Shown here: in pieces, positions 34,097-46,697 of the stretch | Position numbering within the stretch: position 1 is the first letter of the stretch | Layout of the letters: every line of letters starts with the position of its first letter | Assembly (NCBI GenBank): GCA_947600335.1 | Contig: CANQGB010000001.1 | Coordinates: 2,443-66,442, forward strand | Reading direction: 5' to 3' | DNA length: 64,000 nt | DNA from: an uncultured Bacilli bacterium | GTDB lineage: Bacteria; Bacillota_I; Bacilli_A; RF39; UBA660 | Program-made: the position numbers and the translations under genes | Notes under the pieces: model-generated | The model's input: the letters and a program-made list of their open reading frames with translations, nothing else | Told to the model about the DNA's origin: nothing | Database searches by the model: none

Positions 34097-35182
34097 ATGA
34101 TAGAAAATAATAAAAAAAGAATGTCCTTTCTTGATATAGCTAGAGGTATAGCTATAATTCTTATGGTATGTGGACATTGTGAAACATCCGGGGGGGGGGT
34201 TATTGAAAAATTTGTTAATTTATTTAGTATGTCCGTTTTTATTTTTATAAGTGGATATTTATTTAAAGATAAAAAATTTAATAATATTAGAGAACTTTTT
34301 AAATATATAGTTCATAAAGCAAAAAAATTATATTTATTTTATTTAAAATATGAATTACTATTTTTGGCATTGACAAACATATTCTTTAAAATTGGATTTT
34401 ATAGTTCAGAAATAAGTTATAGTGGTAAATTTATTTACCCAATAAATTCATTAAAAATAGTATTACAAAAAATTATTGAAATAGTTTTAGGCATGGGTAG
34501 AGAACCTTTTTGTGGAGCATTTTGGTTTATAATTTCTTTAATATTTATAATTTTTGGTTATTCAATTATACAATATATAAGTTATAAGCAAAATATTCTG
34601 AATAAAAAATTATGTGAAAAAATTGCAGTTATTATATGTTTCATAATTGGATGCCTAATGCAAGCAACTATAAATATACCAAGGGTTGCTCCAGCTTTTA
34701 CTTTAATGTTAGTCTATGATTTAGGAAATGAAGCATATATCAATAGAGAAAAAATTAAATTTAATAATTACATTTTAATGATTATTTGCTTTATTTTATT
34801 ATTAATCTTAAATAATTTTGGTAAAATTAGTATGAACAGTAATGAATTTACAAATCCGCTATACTTTATTATTTGTTCTTTAGCTGGAATATATTTTGTA
34901 ATTGCCATTTCAAATTTTATATTGGAAAAAACAAATAAAATAGCCAAAGTTTTAGAATATATTGGGAGAATAACTCTTGAAATAATGGCATGGCATTTTA
35001 TCGGTTTTAAAATTGCCATGTTGATACAACTTATATTTAAACATGTCGCATTTCCAGATTTAGCATACTTAAAAGGATACAATAATTCAAATTTATGGTA
35101 TTTTGTTTATATAATGTGTGGAATTGGATTACCAGTTATGATATCAAGTATCAAAAAAAAACTAGCTTCAAAAACTTGTTAA
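34097..35182 (+). CDS. acyltransferase family 3 membrane protein; contains an in-frame G10 tract
   Basis: Polytopic. N-terminal LDIARGIAIILMVCGH. G10 at 34190-34199 encodes GGG(V). Confidence 0.55.
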   Translation: MIENNKKRMSFLDIARGIAIILMVCGHCETSGGGVIEKFVNLFSMSVFIFISGYLFKDKKFNNIRELFKYIVHKAKKLYLFYLKYELLFLALTNIFFKIGFYSSEISYSGKFIYPINSLKIVLQKIIEIVLGMGREPFCGAFWFIISLIFIIFGYSIIQYISYKQNILNKKLCEKIAVIICFIIGCLMQATINIPRVAPAFTLMLVYDLGNEAYINREKIKFNNYILMIICFILLLILNNFGKISMNSNEFTNPLYFIICSLAGIYFVIAISNFILEKTNKIAKVLEYIGRITLEIMAWHFIGFKIAMLIQLIFKHVAFPDLAYLKGYNNSNLWYFVYIMCGIGLPVMISSIKKKLASKTC

Positions 35183-36080: not shown

Positions 36081-37196
36081 ATGACCAAAAGTAAAAGAAA
36101 TTCCACTCTAGAAATATTAAGAATTATATCTATGCTTCTGATTATTATGCATCACTATTCTGTACATGGTTTTGAATTAATGAATTTACCACTTGCTTTA
36201 AATAAATTTATTGTTGGTTTTCTTTCATTAGGGGGAAAATTAGGAGTATCATGTTTTATTTTAATATCAGGATATTACATGATTGATTCTAAATTTACAT
36301 TGCAAAAGTTTTTAAAATTAGTTGGGGAAATATGGTTTTATTCAATTTCAATGTTAATTTTATTTTTAACAGTATTGAATCCTGTTGAGCTTAATATGAA
36401 ATTGATAATATCCAGTATTTTTCCTTTATTATCTAGTTTTTATTGGTTTATGACCGCCTATGTTTTGCTAATGATTCTTAGTCCTATTTTAAATTTAATA
36501 ATTAATAATATAGGTAAATGTTTACATGAAAATCTAATTATTTTTTCTATATTAATATGGTCATTTTTACACAATTTTTTAAATTTTGAACTTTATTATA
36601 ATGATTTTATATGGTTTATAGTTCTTTATTTTATAGCAGGTTATTTAAAGAAATATCCAAAAAGAAAAACAAAAAAACATTTTCTTAAAGCTTTTATATC
36701 GTATTTAATAATTATAATTAGTGATATTTTATTAATATATATTGGTAGTAAATATAATATAAATTATCTAGTGGAAAAAAGTGCTCATTTTTCAGAATTA
36801 AATAGCCCATTTATTTTATTTTCTTCTATTGAATTGTTTTTAGGTTTTTCTAATTCAAAGCCATTTAATAATAAAATAGTAAACAATGTAGCTAGCACAA
36901 CACTTGGTATATACCTTATTCATGATAATAGAATAATGCGTCCTTTTTTATGGAATACAATATTTAATAATTCCAAAATGTTTTTTTCCAATTTTTTATT
37001 ATTGCATTCTATTTTTTCTGTTTTAATTGTATTTATTTTTTGCATGATAATCGATTTAATTCGGCAAAATACAATTGAAAAATTATATTTAAAAATTTTA
37101 AATAAGTTTTTAATAAAGATTAAATTATTTTTAGAAAAAATTATTTTAAAAATAAAAAATTTATTTTTTGCAAATAAACTTACTAACCAAAATTAA
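36081..37196 (+). CDS. acyltransferase family 3 membrane protein
   Basis: Polytopic. N-terminal LEILRIISMLLIIMHHYSVH is the acyltransferase-3 pattern. Confidence 0.6.
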   Translation: MTKSKRNSTLEILRIISMLLIIMHHYSVHGFELMNLPLALNKFIVGFLSLGGKLGVSCFILISGYYMIDSKFTLQKFLKLVGEIWFYSISMLILFLTVLNPVELNMKLIISSIFPLLSSFYWFMTAYVLLMILSPILNLIINNIGKCLHENLIIFSILIWSFLHNFLNFELYYNDFIWFIVLYFIAGYLKKYPKRKTKKHFLKAFISYLIIIISDILLIYIGSKYNINYLVEKSAHFSELNSPFILFSSIELFLGFSNSKPFNNKIVNNVASTTLGIYLIHDNRIMRPFLWNTIFNNSKMFFSNFLLLHSIFSVLIVFIFCMIIDLIRQNTIEKLYLKILNKFLIKIKLFLEKIILKIKNLFFANKLTNQN

Positions 37197-37423: not shown

Positions 37424-38353
37424 ATGAAAAGATTTATAACTGCCAAATTGATTGAATGGAAAAATAGCCAAGATAGGAAAAATCTCATTTTAAAAGGAAC
37501 AAGGCAAGTAGGGAAAACTTATATTTTACAAGAATTTGGTAAAAATAATTATGATAAAGAAATACCTAAATTATTTGAATCTATGCTTATCGAAAAATTA
37601 AAGGCTTACTATATTGTTGAAGGTATGTCTGAAGGTGTTTATAGTTGGGTTAATAATAAGGATATAGAAAAAGTTAATAAACTTCAACAAAACATTTTAG
37701 ATACTTATGAAGCTGATTTTTCTAAGCATGTGGATACAAATGAAGCCAATAAAATATCGTTAATCTGGAATGGAATACCTTCCCAATTAGCTAGAGAAAA
37801 TAAAAAATTCGTTTATCAATTAGTTAAAGAAGGAGCTCGAGCTCGAGAATATGAAAATGCTCTAAACTGGTTAAAAGATAGTAACTTAATTTCTAAATGT
37901 TTTTTAGTTAATAAATGTGCTTTCCCTTTAAAAGCTTATAATGATTTATCAGCCTATAAAATATATATGCTAGATGTTGGACTTCTAAGAAAGATGGCTA
38001 ATTTAGATAGTAGCATTATTTTAGAAAGCAATAAATTATTTGAAGAGTTTAAGGGTTCTTTTACTGAAAATTACGTAGTAAATGTTTTAAATTATTTATT
38101 TAATTCTTCGCCAAATTATTATACATTTGATCGAAATGAAATTGATTTTGTTATTCAAATAAAAAATAAAATTATCCCTATTGAAATAAAGTCTAATAAA
38201 AGCACTAACCACAATAGTTTAACTAAATATAATGCTAATAATGACAATGAGTTATCATTTAGATTTTCTTTAAACAATTTGAGTAAAGATGGAAAAATTA
38301 TAAATATCCCATTGTATTTCATTGAATATATTTGTAATCTTAATATTTATTAA
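37424..38353 (+). CDS. AAA_14/DUF4143-family ATPase paralog, apparently internally deleted (Walker A retained, Walker B region missing)
   Basis: GTRQVGKTY Walker A is followed directly by the DUF4143-like C-terminal part. Full-length paralogs lie at 44212 and 58832. Confidence 0.45.
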   Translation: MKRFITAKLIEWKNSQDRKNLILKGTRQVGKTYILQEFGKNNYDKEIPKLFESMLIEKLKAYYIVEGMSEGVYSWVNNKDIEKVNKLQQNILDTYEADFSKHVDTNEANKISLIWNGIPSQLARENKKFVYQLVKEGARAREYENALNWLKDSNLISKCFLVNKCAFPLKAYNDLSAYKIYMLDVGLLRKMANLDSSIILESNKLFEEFKGSFTENYVVNVLNYLFNSSPNYYTFDRNEIDFVIQIKNKIIPIEIKSNKSTNHNSLTKYNANNDNELSFRFSLNNLSKDGKIINIPLYFIEYICNLNIY

Positions 38354-38564: not shown

Positions 38565-40124
38565 ATGTTAAGTCGGAAAATGTTTGAACGCATCAATTGG
38601 TATAAAAAAGAATATATTCATGATTATTATTCGCGAATCATCATAGATTTTAAGGACTATGAAAAAATATCTCGTACCAAAATGCTTGAAGAAGTATATA
38701 AGGTTTATGATAACCCGGAAAATATTTTAGATATATGTACTTTCAAAGAATTAAAGTACTTACAAATGATAATTGAAAACTCCAAACCAATGCCTGAATT
38801 GTTAGACTCTAAATATGATTGGGAAAGAGATATGCTTCATAAAAAATTTTTAATTCAAGATGATTTTAAGGTTGTGTTTATTCCTGATGAAATAATAGAT
38901 CAAGTAAAGAAAGCTTTAGCCATAGTTGATTGGTCTAAAGTCAAAAAAGCAGACGAAATAAATGAAATAGCGGTTAGCTATTGCAAAATGTTAGGTTCAA
39001 CTATATTTTATCAAGTATGCACCATTACCTCTAGTATTACTGGAATTAATGACGAAGAAGTCTTTAATCATTTAAATCATAATCGGCTTTTTAAATTTTA
39101 TGTATATGTCTATAATAAAGATTTCCAACATCTAAATCAAACTCTGCCTGTTGCTTTATATAATGATTATTATACTATCGGTAATGAAATTGAAACTGAA
39201 AGAAAAAAGCAAGGCATTAAAGCGGTGCCTTCTCTTGATGTAGAATTTTTAAAGAGATATTTTTATAATGACTTTGATATAAAAAATCCTAAAATTGCTA
39301 AATTTATCAAAGAAATAAAAAAGCTTCCTATATTATGGCACGATGCTTTGCGTATTGTTAGAGAATATGCCATCTTAAATATCGATAGAACTCCCTTAAA
39401 ACAATCTTTTAAAGATGTACCTAGTTTACAAAAACATAATTTAACTTCTTTTTTTCATACTTTAGATGAAGCTATGGATGAAATGCCATCAGGTGCTTTA
39501 AATGGCTTAACACCTAACCAAGCTAAAAATTATCGAATGGAACAAGAACAAATAAAGCATGACAAAGAACAAAACTATATTAAACAACAAAATGCTTGCT
39601 TATCGAAAAAAGATGCCGACTTATTTTATAAAATCTATTTTGCTTTATTAGAATTTACAAATAAAAAATTTCAAATTAAAAAAGATTTAAAAATATATCA
39701 ACAAAATCACCTTAATCCTCATGATTTAACTAATATTATTGCAAAATTTTGGGAAAATAAAGAAACTTTAACCCAAGAATTTTGTCAAACTAATCCTTAT
39801 AAATTTAATTCTGAAGAATTAGATATTACCTCAAATTTTCAAAAAGGTTTCAGAGGACATTTTATCGTTGTCAAATTTGAAGAAGAATATACTGCTGTAA
39901 TGGATAAAGATAAAACTTATATGATTAAAGGGATAAACGATAATATTGATAACATTCTTTCGTATCAAAACCTCCCTGTAGTTGTTACAACATCTATTAT
40001 TCCTTTTAAAAATTTTTTAATCTATGATGGAATTTTTTACGAATTTAGTATAAGTCTCGGTTCTAATTTTACTAATATGATTAACCAAGATTTTCAAAAA
40101 TCTTTAAAATATTATCATCTTTAA
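38565..40124 (+). CDS. hypothetical 519-aa protein, no recognisable domain
   Basis: Intact ORF, immediately upstream of and co-oriented with the helicase gene. Confidence 0.4.
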   Translation: MLSRKMFERINWYKKEYIHDYYSRIIIDFKDYEKISRTKMLEEVYKVYDNPENILDICTFKELKYLQMIIENSKPMPELLDSKYDWERDMLHKKFLIQDDFKVVFIPDEIIDQVKKALAIVDWSKVKKADEINEIAVSYCKMLGSTIFYQVCTITSSITGINDEEVFNHLNHNRLFKFYVYVYNKDFQHLNQTLPVALYNDYYTIGNEIETERKKQGIKAVPSLDVEFLKRYFYNDFDIKNPKIAKFIKEIKKLPILWHDALRIVREYAILNIDRTPLKQSFKDVPSLQKHNLTSFFHTLDEAMDEMPSGALNGLTPNQAKNYRMEQEQIKHDKEQNYIKQQNACLSKKDADLFYKIYFALLEFTNKKFQIKKDLKIYQQNHLNPHDLTNIIAKFWENKETLTQEFCQTNPYKFNSEELDITSNFQKGFRGHFIVVKFEEEYTAVMDKDKTYMIKGINDNIDNILSYQNLPVVVTTSIIPFKNFLIYDGIFYEFSISLGSNFTNMINQDFQKSLKYYHL

Positions 40125-40161: not shown

Positions 40162-43100
40162 ATGATACTAGAGTCTGAAACTAAATCATTAGAATATCAA
40201 AAATTGCTTAATTATCAAAAAAATCTTAATAATTTATTATTGCAAGAAAAATATATTTCCCATCACGAATATATGCCACTATATAATGATTTAAAAGAAC
40301 TTTATGCTAAATTGAATTTAATGAAAGAAGAAGATGTCTTAACCGTATGGTGTTCTAAAAATAATTTAGCGTACCCAGAATTTCTAAAATTAATTAACTT
40401 TTATGAACAAACTGCTGCCATTATTCAGAAGCACAATGAAGAATTTATTAATAATCATTTAAAAAGCGAAGAAAAGTATTTAGATCAAATATTAGCTTTA
40501 GATGATCCACAAATTAACTTAGATGAAGAACAAAGAAGAGCAATACTTGCCGATGAAGATTATACTTTAATCATTGCCGGTGCTGGAGCTGGTAAAACTA
40601 CTACGATTGAAGCTAAAGTTAAATATTTAATCGAAAAACAAAATATTGATCCCGATAAAATACTGATAGTTTCTTTTACGAAAAAAGCTACTAAAGAACT
40701 TCAAGATAGATGTCAAAAATTACAATTGCCCATTCACATATCGACCTTTCATAGCATTGCTAATACCATTATTAAAAATAATGAAAATGAAAAGCATTAT
40801 ATTGCCACCCCTGATGTAATGTTTACCACCATCAAAAATTTTTTCCTAGAAAATGCTAGTGATGAAATTTTAGTAAAAAAAATCCTATTATTTTTTGCTA
40901 GCTACTTACAAATTTCTCCCGATGAAGATAATTTAGCAGTTTTAATTCAAGAACTTGCTAAAAATGAATGTACCACTATGCGTTCTGATATTGCTCAAAC
41001 TATTGCTAACTATCAAAAACAACAAGAAAAAAAGCATCATACTATTCAAAATGAAGTTGTTAAAAGTATTGAAGAATGTCGGATTGCCAATTTTCTTTTT
41101 ATTAATGGTATCAATTATGAATACGAACCTATTTATCCCTATGGCTTTCAAGACACTTTAAAACCGTATTGTCCTGATTTTTTAATTAAACAATATGATA
41201 AAGAAATTTACTTAGAACACTTCGGAATTTCGGAAGATGGAAAAAATTCGCGTTTTACTAAAGAAGAATTAAAACTTTATAAGCAACATATCAATGATAA
41301 AATATTATTACATAGAGAACATAAAACTAACTTAATTTATACTTTTTCCAAATATAACGATGGTCGAGATACTATTACTCATTTAAAAGAAGAATTACAA
41401 AAATCGGGTATTTCTTTAGAACCAAAGAATAATAAAGAAATTTATCAATGTCTATTAAAAAATATGGAAGATAAATATTTTAATAAATTCATTCAATTAG
41501 TTTGTGTTTTTATTTCGCGTTTTAAAACCAACAATTTTACTTTATCAAAATTTGATGAATGGAAAATTTCCATATCTGATGAACGTACTAAACTATTTAT
41601 CAATATCTGCTATCAATGTTATTTAGCTTATATGACTCATCTTAAAAATGTCAATAGTATAGATTTTGAGGACATGATTAATAATGCTATCAATATTTTA
41701 GACCAAAAAATTAAAAATAATGAAAATTTACCTTACGAATATATCTTTATTGATGAATATCAAGATATTTCTTTGCAAAGATTTGACTTATGTGAAAAAT
41801 TAGCTCAGTGTTCTACCGCTAAAATTATTGCCGTAGGGGATGATTGGCAATCAATCTTTAAATTTAGTGGTGCTAAAATCGAATTATTTACGCGTTTTAA
41901 AGAAATTTTTCCGACTGCTAATATTCTAAAAATTACAAAAACCTATCGGAATAGTCAAGAATTAATTGCTATTGCTGGTAACTTTGTTATGAAAAATGAA
42001 CTTCAAATTCAAAAAGAATTAAAGTCTAACAAATCTTTAAAAGCACCCATTGTCCTTATGATATATAAAGATAGTTATAATAAAGAAGATTCCAATAAAC
42101 CAATTGATAGAATGTGTTTAGCCATTCTTAATTCGCTTGATATAATCGTAAAGAAGCATGGCGAAAACAGTAATGTTTTGTTAATCGGTAGATATGGATT
42201 TGAAGGTTTTCAGCTAACTCAACAAACTAAATATTTCACTTTTAAAAATGGCTATATTTATGCTTTAAAATACCCTAATTTAAAAATGACTTATCTAACA
42301 GCTCATTCATCTAAAGGATTAGGCTATGATAATGTTATTATTATCAATGGTAAAGATGCTATATTAGGTTTTCCTTCCAAAATAGTTGATGATCCTGTTA
42401 TGCAATTAGTTATCAAAGATACTGAAGATGTAGAATATGCTGAAGAAAGACGATTATTTTATGTTGCCTTAACTAGAACTAAAAATAGAGTATTCATAAT
42501 AACTCCTATTAACCATCCTTCGAAATTTATCTTAGAAATAAAAAATAAATATGAAAATATAATTTTGGGTGGAAATGAATTAAAACCGATTGAAAAATTA
42601 AATAATACTGTTACCTGCCCTTATTGTGGTTTTCCTTTACAAAAAAGAGAAAATAAAAACTTTAAATTAGCTCAAAGATTATGGATATGTTCTAATGACC
42701 CAGAAGTCTGTGGCTTTGTAACTAATGATTTAAGAGGGGGAAAGTTATCGATTACTAAATGTCCAAATTGTCAAGATGGATACTTAATAGTTAAAATGCG
42801 TAAAAATTCGAGTAATACCTCTACCAAAGTATTAGGTTGTACTAATTACAAAAGTGATAAAACTGGCTGTAATACTATTATGTTTCCCCAAAATTATACT
42901 CAAGACCGTGAAGAATTTTCCCTTAAATTTCAAAATCCTAAATTGGATATAACTAAAGTAACTTTTTGTGGTTATCTATTCCCCGAAATGGTGGATATTA
43001 TCTTAAAAGTTATCAAAAAACTACAAGATTCTAAAATTGATATTGACTCTAAAAGGCTTTTTTCCATGCTTTCTGGTACGGATGACCAATTATCTTTTAA

Positions 43101-43281
43101 TAAATATAATTTTAATAAAATCAAAATGCAAGATAAAAAGAAATTTTACGCCTTACTTAATTCCTTAATTGATAATCATTTTATAAATGTTGATTACCAC
43201 AATTACAGTAAGTTAAGTTTAGTAAAAGAAAGTTTAAACTTAAATGATTATGCATTAATATTTGCTGGAATAAAATTGTAA
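40162..43281 (+). CDS. UvrD/Rep-like SF1 helicase with embedded DUF559/Vsr-like nuclease motif and C-terminal topoisomerase-type zinc ribbons
   Basis: Walker A LIIAGAGAGKTTT. DEYQD box at IFIDEYQDIS. UvrD C-terminal motifs LTAHSSKGLGYD and YVALTRTKNRVFII. Insert CPDFLIKQYDKEIYLEHFG (PD..E.H). Cys4 clusters CPYCG..CSNDPEVCG and CPNCQDG..GCTNYKSDKTGCN. Confidence 0.7.
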   Translation: MILESETKSLEYQKLLNYQKNLNNLLLQEKYISHHEYMPLYNDLKELYAKLNLMKEEDVLTVWCSKNNLAYPEFLKLINFYEQTAAIIQKHNEEFINNHLKSEEKYLDQILALDDPQINLDEEQRRAILADEDYTLIIAGAGAGKTTTIEAKVKYLIEKQNIDPDKILIVSFTKKATKELQDRCQKLQLPIHISTFHSIANTIIKNNENEKHYIATPDVMFTTIKNFFLENASDEILVKKILLFFASYLQISPDEDNLAVLIQELAKNECTTMRSDIAQTIANYQKQQEKKHHTIQNEVVKSIEECRIANFLFINGINYEYEPIYPYGFQDTLKPYCPDFLIKQYDKEIYLEHFGISEDGKNSRFTKEELKLYKQHINDKILLHREHKTNLIYTFSKYNDGRDTITHLKEELQKSGISLEPKNNKEIYQCLLKNMEDKYFNKFIQLVCVFISRFKTNNFTLSKFDEWKISISDERTKLFINICYQCYLAYMTHLKNVNSIDFEDMINNAINILDQKIKNNENLPYEYIFIDEYQDISLQRFDLCEKLAQCSTAKIIAVGDDWQSIFKFSGAKIELFTRFKEIFPTANILKITKTYRNSQELIAIAGNFVMKNELQIQKELKSNKSLKAPIVLMIYKDSYNKEDSNKPIDRMCLAILNSLDIIVKKHGENSNVLLIGRYGFEGFQLTQQTKYFTFKNGYIYALKYPNLKMTYLTAHSSKGLGYDNVIIINGKDAILGFPSKIVDDPVMQLVIKDTEDVEYAEERRLFYVALTRTKNRVFIITPINHPSKFILEIKNKYENIILGGNELKPIEKLNNTVTCPYCGFPLQKRENKNFKLAQRLWICSNDPEVCGFVTNDLRGGKLSITKCPNCQDGYLIVKMRKNSSNTSTKVLGCTNYKSDKTGCNTIMFPQNYTQDREEFSLKFQNPKLDITKVTFCGYLFPEMVDIILKVIKKLQDSKIDIDSKRLFSMLSGTDDQLSFNKYNFNKIKMQDKKKFYALLNSLIDNHFINVDYHNYSKLSLVKESLNLNDYALIFAGIKL

Positions 43282-43330: not shown

Positions 43331-43999
43331 ATTATTCTTCATCATCATGATGAGTATCATCTACTACTTTTTCTGCTTCAGCCCCAGTTACCTGAAACGG
43401 TAAAGTATTTAAGATCAATTCTGGTTCTTGTTTACTCGGTTCATTGTCTAAAACTAAATCAGTGATTTTAAAAGTAGTTGATTTAGTTTCTTGTAAAGCT
43501 TTAAAAGTAAAACCGATCTTTTTAGAACCTTGACCACCATTAATTTTACCTTCATAGATAATTTCACCAGGAGTAGAATTATCAACTTTGTTAGTTTTAA
43601 GTAAGCTTACAACTGAACCTTCAAGATACTCAAATATTTCCTCATTAAAACTTAATTTAAATGAGGCACTACTGATTGGCTTATCAAGCACAAGTGATAC
43701 TTGATTAGTATCAAGCACTCTGATTAATGTAGATTGAGAAGTTAATTTTGCATTTACATTCATAATATTCCATGTCCTTTCTAATATAATTTTACTATAA
43801 TAATCAGCTTAATTAAAAATTTTTAATTAAAGTTAACATTATAGTTGACAAAATATCCTTGAGAAACCCCTAAAAATAAGGAAAAAAAGAGTAAATAATG
43901 CCCTAAATAATGTAAAAAGTGCAAAAAATGTAAAAAAATTTCAAAATATTCAAAATATCTGTTATAATATAAAAGAAATATTTAAGAAACGAAAGGAGA
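43331..43999. repeat. direct repeat copy 2
   Basis: About 95% identical to 22810-23476. Confidence 0.85.
43332..43763 (-). CDS. hypothetical 143-aa protein, copy 2 of the duplicated paralog
   Basis: About 92% aa identity to the gene at 22809-23240. Confidence 0.5.
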   Translation of the reverse strand: MNVNAKLTSQSTLIRVLDTNQVSLVLDKPISSASFKLSFNEEIFEYLEGSVVSLLKTNKVDNSTPGEIIYEGKINGGQGSKKIGFTFKALQETKSTTFKITDLVLDNEPSKQEPELILNTLPFQVTGAEAEKVVDDTHHDDEE

Positions 44000-44026: not shown

Positions 44027-44211
44027 ATATACGCAATTGGTTTATTTAACTGAAATTTTAATTCCACGTCAAAAAGAATAGAGTGATTTCTCTAAAAAGT
44101 CTCGGGTTGATTTGTTAAAATCTCACGGAATGATTTTTCAAAATTACACGGTTTTTACTTGACATTTCTTTAGAACATAATATAAACTTATAATAAGTGA
44201 GGGATAAAACT

Positions 44212-45489
44212 ATGGAAATACAAAATTATCGAAAAAGAATTGTTGATGCTAAAATTGAAGAATACCTCAAAATGTTTGGGGCGGTTTGTATTGAAGGACC
44301 TAAATATTGTGGCAAAACTTGGGCTGGTAGATTTCACGCTAATAGTGAAACATTACTTCATAACAATACCGGTGAGGGTTCTAATAATATCGAAATTGCC
44401 AAAATATCTCCTAATATCATTTTAGAAGGAGCTAAGCCTAAATTAATTGATGAATGGCAAGAAGCGACTAATCTTTGGGATGAAATAAGAAACAATATTG
44501 ATAAAAGTGGTTTAAAAGGCCAATATATTTTAACCGGTTCATCAACTCCCAAAAGGGATGGAATCTCTCATAGTGGTGCCGGTCGCTTTGGTAAAATTCA
44601 TTTACGGCCCATGTCATTATACGAATCTGGTGATTCCACAGGAGTTGTTTCATTGCAAGATATATGTAACAACCAAGAAATCGCTAAATCAACGGGTGAA
44701 GTGGACTTAAAAGAATTAGCTCGCCTAATTATTCGTGGTGGTTGGCCTGGAAACTTAGAATTTTCTTCATCAGAAGCTAAAAAAGCCTTAAATGAATATA
44801 TTGACTTAATAATTAACGATGATTTATATCGCTTAGATGGCATCAACCGCGATAAACATAAAATGAAATTACTTTTAAAATCTTTAGCCCGCAACGAAAG
44901 CACAACTGTTACCAATACTACTTTAAAGCGAGATATTAATGAAAAAGACAATGAGGATATTGATATTGATACCTTAGCATCCTACTTAAATGCTCTTGAC
45001 AAGTTATTTTTACTAGACAATGATGAACCTTTTTCGACTAATATTCGTTCTTCCATCCGAGTTAAACAATCTGAAAAGCGCCATTTTGCCGACCCATCAA
45101 TTGCTTGTGCCTTATTAAACTTATCTGAAGAAAAATTGATCAACGATTTAGAAACCTTTGGCTTTTTATTCGAAGCTATGGTGGAAAGAGACTTAAAAAT
45201 ATACGCTGATTCTTTTGATGCTAAAACCTATCATTATCAAGATTACTTAAATAGAGAAATAGACCAAGTAATTGAACTGGAAGATGGAACTTGGTGTGCC
45301 TTTGAAATCAAATTAGGTGTCAATGCCATTGACCAAGCCGCCAGTAATCTTATCAAAATTCGTGATTCCATTAAAGAAAACAATGGCAATTATCCTAAAG
45401 TATTATGTGTCATCTGTGGTTTAGCCAATGCTGCTTATAAAAGAGCTGATGGAGTTTATGTTGTACCTATTACCGCTTTAAAAAATTAA
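44212..45489 (+). CDS. AAA_14/DUF4143-family ATPase
   Basis: Walker A GPKYCGKTW, DEWQ Walker B-like box, C-terminal DUF4143-type region. RBS GAGGGA. Confidence 0.55.
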   Translation: MEIQNYRKRIVDAKIEEYLKMFGAVCIEGPKYCGKTWAGRFHANSETLLHNNTGEGSNNIEIAKISPNIILEGAKPKLIDEWQEATNLWDEIRNNIDKSGLKGQYILTGSSTPKRDGISHSGAGRFGKIHLRPMSLYESGDSTGVVSLQDICNNQEIAKSTGEVDLKELARLIIRGGWPGNLEFSSSEAKKALNEYIDLIINDDLYRLDGINRDKHKMKLLLKSLARNESTTVTNTTLKRDINEKDNEDIDIDTLASYLNALDKLFLLDNDEPFSTNIRSSIRVKQSEKRHFADPSIACALLNLSEEKLINDLETFGFLFEAMVERDLKIYADSFDAKTYHYQDYLNREIDQVIELEDGTWCAFEIKLGVNAIDQAASNLIKIRDSIKENNGNYPKVLCVICGLANAAYKRADGVYVVPITALKN

Positions 45490-46697
45490 TCTTCATTATC
45501 GCTATCATTTTTATATAACTCTTTAACTCTTGCATAATAAATTCGCAAAAATTTATTTAAACCAGCTACTTTGGCTACTTTTTTAGGTTTACCTTCGGCT
45601 TCCTTTTTTAAAATAAATAAGTAAACACTATTATCTTTTTGTGGTCTTGAAGACTTAATACTTTTCATAACTTCATAGCCAACTTTTCTTAAATATTTAT
45701 TACCTCTTTTGGTAATATGCCTATTCGTAGCATTAAACATACCTGATTGATATGGTGGGGTATCAATACCACAATAAGCAATTAAACAATTAGCATTCTT
45801 AAATCTTCTAATATCCCCGATTTCCGCTATTAATCTAGCTCGCGTTTTTTCACCAACACCAGTCATATTCTTAACAATTTCATATTCATCTAACTGTTTT
45901 GCTAATTCATCCATTCTCGAAATTAAATCATTAGTTATCTTGATAGAATCTCGTAAAAGAATAATACAACTAGTAATAGTTAATTGTAAAGATTCATTGT
46001 AGGGAATAGATGTCGTAACTGTCGGGGCCATTTCATAAATTTGTTCTCCAATAATTCTGCCTACTTTATGTTTATATTTTTGCGCTAAATTTTCTATATT
46101 ATCAATAAAAACCGTTTTGTCTTGTTCCAATACCTTTGTTGGATAAGAATAAATTTCATATATATCTAGTAGTAATTGATATCTGCTTTCCGCATTGACA
46201 ATCTCCTTTATTCCTGGAAAAGTTTGGTCAATTAAATTAGTTAATTGAACCTTTAACTTAGTTTGAATACTTATATATTCTGAATATTGTCTTGATAAAA
46301 AAAGAAGTTGTTCTCTTATTTCATTAGACAATTGATATTTTTTTAGTTTATACCATTTTTCACTGCAATAAACAGCTAATTTTAAAGAATCTTTTTTATC
46401 GTTTTTTACTTTTCTTAAATCTACATCACAATATTTTTTGATTACTAAGGCATTTTCAACACAAACAAAGTAATCATTTTGTAGTAAAAAATTTAAAATA
46501 GATAAATGGTAATGACCTGTTGCCTCCATTAAAATTTTTGTTTCACTTTTGTTTAATTTTTCGAGTTTTAACAGTAAATCGTTAAAACCATTTTGGTCAT
46601 GAATAATTTCAAAAGGTTCATAAATAATTTCACCATGGATATTAATAACTGCAATTGTACTTTTGCCTTTTGAAACATCAATTCCTACTGCATACAT
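45486..46697 (-). CDS. IS110 family transposase
   Basis: N-terminal MYAVGIDVSKGKS..IAVI (DEDD RuvC-like region). C-terminal transposase_20 region with ARLIAEIGDIRRF and AYCGIDTPPYQSG. Confidence 0.85.
   Translation of the reverse strand: MYAVGIDVSKGKSTIAVINIHGEIIYEPFEIIHDQNGFNDLLLKLEKLNKSETKILMEATGHYHLSILNFLLQNDYFVCVENALVIKKYCDVDLRKVKNDKKDSLKLAVYCSEKWYKLKKYQLSNEIREQLLFLSRQYSEYISIQTKLKVQLTNLIDQTFPGIKEIVNAESRYQLLLDIYEIYSYPTKVLEQDKTVFIDNIENLAQKYKHKVGRIIGEQIYEMAPTVTTSIPYNESLQLTITSCIILLRDSIKITNDLISRMDELAKQLDEYEIVKNMTGVGEKTRARLIAEIGDIRRFKNANCLIAYCGIDTPPYQSGMFNATNRHITKRGNKYLRKVGYEVMKSIKSSRPQKDNSVYLFILKKEAEGKPKKVAKVAGLNKFLRIYYARVKELYKNDSDNED

Follow-up and report, generated by a model that had tools for sequence, protein, structure and literature searches.

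A predicted T7 endonuclease I/Vsr-like domain nested in domain 1B of a helicase IV-like protein from an uncultured Bacilli bacterium

We have analyzed a stretch of 64,000 nucleotides, hereafter the window, from an uncultured Bacilli bacterium (assembly GCA_947600335.1, contig CANQGB010000001.1, positions 2,443 to 66,442 of the forward strand). An open reading frame (ORF) of 1039 amino acids (aa) at 40162-43281 on the forward strand encodes a helicase IV-like, UvrD-family helicase of superfamily 1 (SF1), as assigned from Pfam, NCBIfam and an alignment with HelD of E. coli. Domain 1B of this helicase is predicted to contain a complete PD-(D/E)xK (restriction-endonuclease-like) domain of the T7 endonuclease I/Vsr-like type, occupying aa ~296-415 (41047-41406, forward strand). 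Three acidic residues expected at the metal site are nearly invariant among the relatives of this domain, and the position of the catalytic lysine is always taken by an aromatic residue. We consider, with a probability of roughly 0.55, that the domain is an active nuclease coupled to the helicase motor and using a lysine-less, Vsr-like variant chemistry. The original prediction, obtained from the nucleotide sequence without database searches, had placed a DUF559/Vsr-like endonuclease motif inside the helicase core and had taken it for a built-in nuclease coupled to translocation.

Position and predicted fold of the inserted domain

The helicase ORF matched UvrD-helicase (E 2.6e-50), AAA_19 and UvrD_C in Pfam, and the scores for PF00580 (172 bits; cut-off 23) and PF13361 (32.9 bits; cut-off 25.6) were both above the gathering score. 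Motif I or Walker A (GAGAGKT, aa 140-146; 40579-40599) was found by a pattern search and by alignment with motif I of PcrA, motif II (DEYQD, aa 531-535; 41752-41766) was aligned with motif II of PcrA and HelD, and motif VI (ERRLFYVALTR, aa 762-772; 42445-42477) was recovered in both alignments; all lie on the forward strand, as do the other helicase features below. Motif Ia was also located, and motifs III (aa 559), IV (aa 595) and V (aa 715) are intact. These hidden Markov model (HMM) scores and motifs I-VI are those of a UvrD/Rep SF1A helicase, and by sequence the SF1A motor is intact, with all ATPase and translocase motifs kept. The best NCBIfam match was DNA helicase IV (NF008276; E 1.1e-88, 298.5 bits), which was aligned in two stretches skipping the insert and did not reach the equivalog cut-off of 543 bits.

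The segment at 41074-41227 highlighted by the original prediction is in frame in this ORF and encodes E305-G355 (EECRIANFLFINGINYEYEPIYPYGFQDTLKPYCPDFLIKQYDKEIYLEHFG), its end coordinate being one base beyond the codon of G355. Walker A and DEYQD flank these residues, and the claimed location between the ATP-binding motifs and the DEYQD box is therefore right. In the alignment with PcrA (1pjr), residues 11-102 and 171-316 of PcrA correspond to residues 119-206 and 481-625 of the query, and the domain 1B region has 274 residues in the query against 68 in PcrA. The alignment with E. coli HelD pairs HelD 172-286 with query 90-207 and HelD 398-675 with query 489-795 at 31% identity, leaving 111 residues between the aligned blocks of HelD, and neither the PDF nor the EHFG motif is present in this 111-residue 1B segment. 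Since the query has 170-200 residues more than PcrA and HelD here, domain 1B (aa 207-480; 40780-41601), defined as the gap between the PcrA- and HelD-aligned blocks, is expanded, and it has helical parts before and after the nuclease-like domain. Only 87 query residues lie between the blocks flanking the 246-residue region of PcrA that contains domain 2B, and thus the large 2B domain is absent, as has been reported for helicase IV (PMC8655204).

We modeled aa 207-481 as a single chain with AlphaFold2, using an alignment of 127 sequences. The mean predicted local distance difference test (pLDDT) score was 83.5 and ranged from 87 to 98 over aa ~296-415. The order of elements in the model, helix-strand-strand-strand-helix-strand-helix, is that of the PD-(D/E)xK core and includes the alpha-beta-beta-beta-alpha-beta arrangement by which this superfamily is defined. 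The original prediction had suggested that structure modeling might reveal a restriction-endonuclease-like insert, and the model agrees: a whole fold of this kind is predicted to form within one chain, in domain 1B, between 1B helices at aa 217-290 and 424-480. A low-confidence stretch before it (aa 249-277; 40906-40992; pLDDT <50 in model residues 43-60 and 62-71) is probably a flexible linker. Structures listed beside the domain model were the catalytic domain of I-Bth0305I (3r3p; value 9.0), Vsr (1cw0; 8.8), VRR-NUC (8.3), the DUF559 protein NGO0050 (3hrl; 8.1), TnsA (8.0) and Bax1 (7.8). The predicted catalytic domain is thus structurally similar to the Vsr/DUF559/DUF2726 group of Steczkiewicz et al. 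2012 (PMC3424549), which includes Vsr, DUF559 and the I-Bth0305I “EDxHD” homing endonuclease.

Sequence relatives, active-site residues and distribution

The claim of a DUF559/Vsr pattern stands only in part: the structural similarity and the equivalents of Vsr E25 and D51 are found, and family membership is not. The HMM search against Pfam that had been proposed as a check gave no match to Vsr (PF03852) or DUF559 (PF04480), nor to DUF2726 (PF10881) or NERD, in the segment at E<=1. These four families were also absent among the 25 listed of the 26 families matched by 40 diverse members, and NCBIfam detected none of the four in the whole protein. Direct membership in the Vsr or DUF559 family was rejected on the basis of Pfam and NCBIfam, for both the segment and the whole protein. 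When the domain profile was compared with E. coli Vsr by hhalign, the probability was 3.7%, and the short alignment paired E305 with E25 and the PDF motifs of the two proteins with each other.

The same profile searched against 177,635 PDB sequences detected T7 endonuclease I (E 1.4e-3), its catalytic residues being lined up with those of the domain, and hhalign gave a probability of 93% for this pair. At low stringency the two can be aligned colinearly over T7 aa 5-122, with confidence only over ~aa 15-72; phmmer with the insert against PDB sequences gave noise only (coproporphyrinogen oxidase, E 0.5). PHROG 9019, “Holliday junction resolvase”, matched the domain of the window itself at 2.5e-7, and PHROG 945, “endonuclease”, was matched by 30 of the 40 members. 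Pfam Phage_endo_I (PF05367) was matched by 23 of the 40, with a best E of 2.6e-4 and all under the gathering threshold, and the domain of the window itself had no match to PF05367 at E<=1. Judging from these profile comparisons, the nearest sequence relatives appear to be T7 endonuclease I and phage Holliday-junction resolvases, and remote homology to T7 endonuclease I is supported.

Residues were counted over 378 copies of the domain, taking the ungapped copies at each position as the denominator. The candidate metal-site glutamate E305 in helix alpha-1 (41074-41076), equivalent to T7 E20 and Vsr E25, is present in 351 of 351 copies. The “PD” motif P338-D339-F340 in strand beta-2 (41173-41181) contains D339, equivalent to T7 D55 and Vsr D51, with aspartate in 368 of 372 copies. 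Strand beta-3 contains E352-H353-F354-G355 (41215-41226), in which E352 (367/368) is equivalent to T7 E65, H353 is found in 362 of 367 copies, and F354 falls on the position of T7 K67. At this position of the catalytic lysine, F was found in 335 copies, Y in 26 and W in three, and K never. Acidic residues are thus found at the three places typical of the superfamily (E305 in alpha-1, D339 at the start of beta-2 and E352 in beta-3), and three of the four members of the T7 tetrad E20, D55, E65 and K67 are kept, K67 being replaced by F354; we take E20, D55 and E65 to be metal ligands in T7 endonuclease I. Two more residues, K380 and H384 in helix alpha-2 (41299-41313), are nearly invariant and basic (K 333/337; H 328/332).

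Over alignments spanning 27-96% identity, S302, E305, A309, N310, Y319, Y321, E322, Y336, P338, D339 and F340, and also E352, H353, G355, Y373, K380, H384 and S396, are invariant or nearly so. Whether the motif residues are conserved in homologs had been named as a test of the original prediction, and the near-invariance of E305, D339 and E352 answers it in its favor. Mean identity to 119 homologues is 75% for the domain (aa 296-415), 70-75% for the ATPase core, 39% for the N-terminus and 33% for the C-terminus. The inserted domain is conserved to the same degree as the ATPase core.

The likeness to T7 endonuclease I (gp3) extends around the acidic residues. S302-x-x-E305, P338-D339-F340 and E352-H353-F354-G355 correspond to S17-x-x-E20, P54-D55-F56 and E65-T66-K67-G68, the patterns Y-x-Y-E and Y-x-P-D-F are in register, and the profile alignment of beta-3 reads “YlehfG” against “FVETKG” of T7. 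Differences are F, Y or W in place of Lys67 and the invariant histidine beside the glutamate. Furthermore, T7 endonuclease I exists on its own, as a domain-swapped homodimer whose active sites are composite, whereas the domain of the window is modeled as a complete single-chain fold embedded in a helicase.

Vsr resembles the domain in lacking the lysine and is an accepted PD-(D/E)xK member. Of the Vsr active-site set E25/D51/H64/H69/D97 (PMC3239194), however, only the equivalents of E25 and D51 (E305 and D339) are found in the domain. Its beta-3 reads Y-L-E-H-F-G-I-S, and it has neither the zinc-site Cys/His pattern, the DG..H and the FWH of the Vsr/DUF559 proteins nor the intercalating Trp residues of Vsr, while the beta-3 glutamate that Vsr has lost is kept.

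A nuclease-like domain in helicase domain 1B is common in bacteria. The search with the whole protein detected more than 3000 homologues, the best 120 of which are alike in length and architecture. A filter-free HMMER search with aa 207-481 gave 1725 cluster representatives (50% identity) at E<=1e-3 and 897 at E<=1e-10, most of the 1725 being 800-1100 residues long with the match at about aa 210-490. A genome scan with the single domain, in which one genome per species was used, returned 80 loci from metagenome-assembled genomes (MAGs) of Bacilli and Clostridia, Erysipelotrichaceae, Bacteroidota, Patescibacteria, Helicobacter, Treponema, Vibrio, Marinomonas and a few archaea, the closest relatives being the Bacilli and Clostridia MAGs with 76-82% domain identity. 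For 73 domain matches across these loci, Walker A precedes the domain and DExQD follows it in the same ORF; for the remaining matches, one of the two motif patterns was missing in the ORF read, many of these being at contig ends. The domain was also found on 72 plasmids, where the gene is annotated merely as “UvrD-helicase domain-containing protein”, and in only four phage-labelled records, which are unannotated.

A profile of the domain alignment searched against a set of 5.8 billion proteins returned short proteins only (<=251 residues), mostly on short contigs, and is uninformative on other architectures. Five proteins of 115-234 aa (P0309, P0311, P0313, P0315 and P0345), which consist mostly of this domain, are on long contigs (29 kb to 1.3 Mb). 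These may be stand-alone copies of the domain, or else helicases that were split or became pseudogenes.

An active nuclease, a DNA-sensing domain or an interaction arm

The reading as an active nuclease would work as follows. By analogy with helicase IV, UvrD and PcrA, the motor would move 3'->5' on single-stranded DNA, and domain 1B would lie over the junction of single- and double-stranded DNA, as in UvrD and PcrA. With such a motor and such a placement, the nuclease domain would meet a fork, a branch point or a displaced strand, where a metal-dependent cut would be made, while the two zinc ribbons and the C-terminal region of the protein would hold the DNA. Because of the homology to a junction-resolving enzyme, branched DNA would be the natural substrate. 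Since the lysine position is aromatic, catalysis would need a variant chemistry in the style of Vsr: Vsr-type enzymes act without this lysine, using a histidine as general base and Asp97 from the helix after beta-3 (PMC3239194). Support in catalysis may come from a histidine or lysine located elsewhere, either H353 or K380 together with H384 on the following helix, the one that carries D97 in Vsr. By analogy with that D97 helix (PMC3239194), which would place them in the active site, K380 and H384 are candidate stand-ins for the missing lysine. The biological role is most likely the processing of branched or foreign DNA.

Several observations weigh against this reading. The (D/E)-x-K element of the PD-(D/E)xK superfamily is not found, as no copy has a lysine at position 354, and because this position is always F, Y or W, nuclease activity is something that we infer. 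Lysine mutants of T7 endonuclease I such as K67A, the form in PDB entry 2pfj (sequence “VETAG”), are catalytically inactive. H353 is the neighbor of E352 on a beta-strand, and its side chain therefore probably points away from the metal site. Both the polarity and the placement of 1B are carried over from UvrD and PcrA and may differ here. Lastly, the association with defence genes is anecdotal, most neighbors of the helicase gene being unrelated housekeeping genes.

In a second explanation, a nuclease of the junction-resolvase type has lost its catalytic activity, and the domain descended from it is kept for structure-specific binding or sensing of DNA (forks, junctions, flaps or as a wedge) in a protein that is only a helicase or translocase. 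We consider this less likely than an active nuclease. The three acidic residues of the metal site are invariant down to ~30% identity and across phyla, and dead nucleases normally lose such residues; in addition, an extra invariant histidine and lysine are at hand, and Vsr-type enzymes cut without the lysine.

A still less probable explanation concerns protein interaction. In the helicase IV/HelD group, domain 1B hosts unrelated inserts with roles other than those of a helicase, and in HelD of B. subtilis and mycobacteria, a helicase IV relative with a lineage-specific insert at the same 1B position, the insert forms a clamp arm for binding to RNA polymerase (PMC8655204). The insert of the window protein might likewise be an arm that docks the motor on RNA polymerase or another machine. 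This is improbable, because both the fold and the residues conserved in it fit a nuclease active site and do not fit a coiled-coil arm. Furthermore, no structure of B. subtilis or mycobacterial HelD matched the window protein at E<=0.001, and the C-terminal zinc ribbons point to DNA binding. A chance resemblance, or a recent in-frame insertion of a selfish homing endonuclease without a function in the helicase, is excluded for practical purposes by conservation and distribution, since the domain stands at the same position across many phyla and in 1725 cluster representatives, is conserved like the ATPase core and has significant sequence homology, and since none of the short proteins from the profile search has been shown to be a free-standing mobile copy.

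Remaining regions, genomic neighborhood and significance

The two ends of the protein are poorly conserved. The N-terminal domain (aa 1-118; 40162-40515) had only a faint match to Helicase_IV_N (PF12462; E 0.27; 11.6 bits, cut-off 24.5). Two C4 zinc ribbons of the topoisomerase-I type (42616-42870) were recognized by the cysteine pattern in the translation, C819/C822/C843/C850 and C867/C870/C893/C903, with the sequences CPYC...CSNDPEVC and CPNC...GCTNYKSDKTGC. Their Pfam match, Zn_ribbon_Top1, was under the cut-off (E 0.0028), and one homologue (P0116) has PF01396 on record. The C-terminal region (aa 904-1039; 42871-43278) is variable; it is RQC- or winged-helix-like in some homologues, many of which have a precomputed PF09382 (RQC) in this region, and that of the window helicase itself had no Pfam match. 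E. coli HelD, UvrD, PcrA and Rep have the same motor, and the 31% identity to HelD covers domains 1A and 2A, again without a large 2B; in contrast, the 1B domain of HelD has no nuclease-like domain, and the window protein has the zinc ribbons and the C-terminal extension in addition and scores below the helicase IV cut-off.

In the window, an ORF of 519 aa (38565-40124), which shares the forward strand with the helicase, stops 38 bp short of it, and one of 143 aa (43332-43763, reverse strand) is convergent with it. The former had no Pfam or PADLOC match and the latter no Pfam match, and neither had a homologue in the 86 fetched loci. Two genes of DUF4143/AAA_14 ATPases, at 37424-38353 and 44197-45489 (both forward), bracket the helicase, and each has a match to PADLOC candidate PDC-S01. 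The downstream copy is full-length; the upstream one (309 aa) seems to be truncated, since its AAA_14 match covers residues 18-46 only and its alignment with the PDC-S01 model starts at position 173 of the model. The second copy is immediately followed by an IS110-family transposase gene (DEDD_Tnp_IS110 and Transposase_20) at 45486-46697 on the reverse strand, and this adjoining transposase suggests that the helicase is located in a part of the genome that is variable or mobile. Further upstream are two genes of Acyl_transf_3 acyltransferases (34097-35182 and 36081-37196, both forward), which, taken with the run of same-strand ORFs from ~23.7 to 37.2 kb, look like a surface-polysaccharide locus that ends just before the variable region.

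Genes for an integrase, AbiH, an SLFN-type helicase, Macro, AbiL and PtuA were found near homologues of the helicase. The neighbors at 55 diverse loci are heterogeneous, with AAA_21/AbiL, PtuA-like ATPases, NERD, resolvases and SLFN-type proteins scattered among many housekeeping genes. As no conserved gene partner was found around these 55 loci, a dedicated multi-gene system is not supported, and this candidate was rejected from the heterogeneous neighbors and the flanking ORFs without homologues in the 86 loci. The helicase gene stands alone, often in variable, mobile or defence-rich regions. PADLOC matches of the protein were limited to two kinds: those of the generic UvrD core, to GajB and a DRT helicase, and one of the inserted domain, to the C-terminal ~100 positions of the candidate defence protein PDC-S68 (E 9e-17 for the whole protein).

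Nuclease-helicase fusions and both of the individual folds are already well known. In RecB, AddA-AddB and Dna2, too, a PD-(D/E)xK nuclease shares its polypeptide with an SF1 motor. These enzymes have a RecB/Cas4-type nuclease, in which D-x-K is intact, as a terminal domain, whereas the nuclease-like domain of the window is nested in 1B, between motifs Ia and II, and has no lysine. The nuclease of RecB is joined by a linker, and a tether between helicase and nuclease is named in the title of PMC6326792. In the literature searched, which omits most subscription journals, no report was found of helicase IV or UvrD-type helicases that have a nuclease domain in 1B, and we found the same layout described neither in Pfam (2025 copy) nor in NCBIfam or PADLOC 2.0. 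What appears to be new is the nesting of a T7 endonuclease I/Vsr-like domain in the 1B of a helicase IV-like protein, with an invariant E-D-E-H set and an aromatic residue at the lysine position, and an earlier description may exist.

We tentatively propose, at somewhat less than even odds, that these proteins form a large unnamed helicase IV-like clade with a lysine-less E-D-E(H) resolvase-type nuclease in 1B, in which one polypeptide would unwind and cut DNA at a fork or branch. This clade would comprise at least 1725 clusters at 50% identity, from Firmicutes, Bacteroidota, Proteobacteria, Patescibacteria, some archaea and plasmids. If this is true, it would be a nuclease-helicase design distinct from RecB/AddAB, Dna2 and Cas3, possibly directed against mobile DNA or used for the processing of forks and junctions. 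It would also be a third way of joining PD-(D/E)xK to SF1, with the nuclease nested in 1B, whereas that of RecB/AddA or Dna2 is terminal. The E-D-E-H set with an aromatic residue at the lysine position marks either a novel form of catalysis or a nuclease fold that now serves DNA recognition, and both outcomes would be informative. A better annotation would become possible for thousands of database entries that are at present called just “UvrD-helicase domain-containing protein”. Helicase IV is among the least understood SF1 helicases, and the conserved nuclease-fold domain that many members of its wider family have where the motor would meet the fork provides a testable hypothesis on the function of these enzymes.

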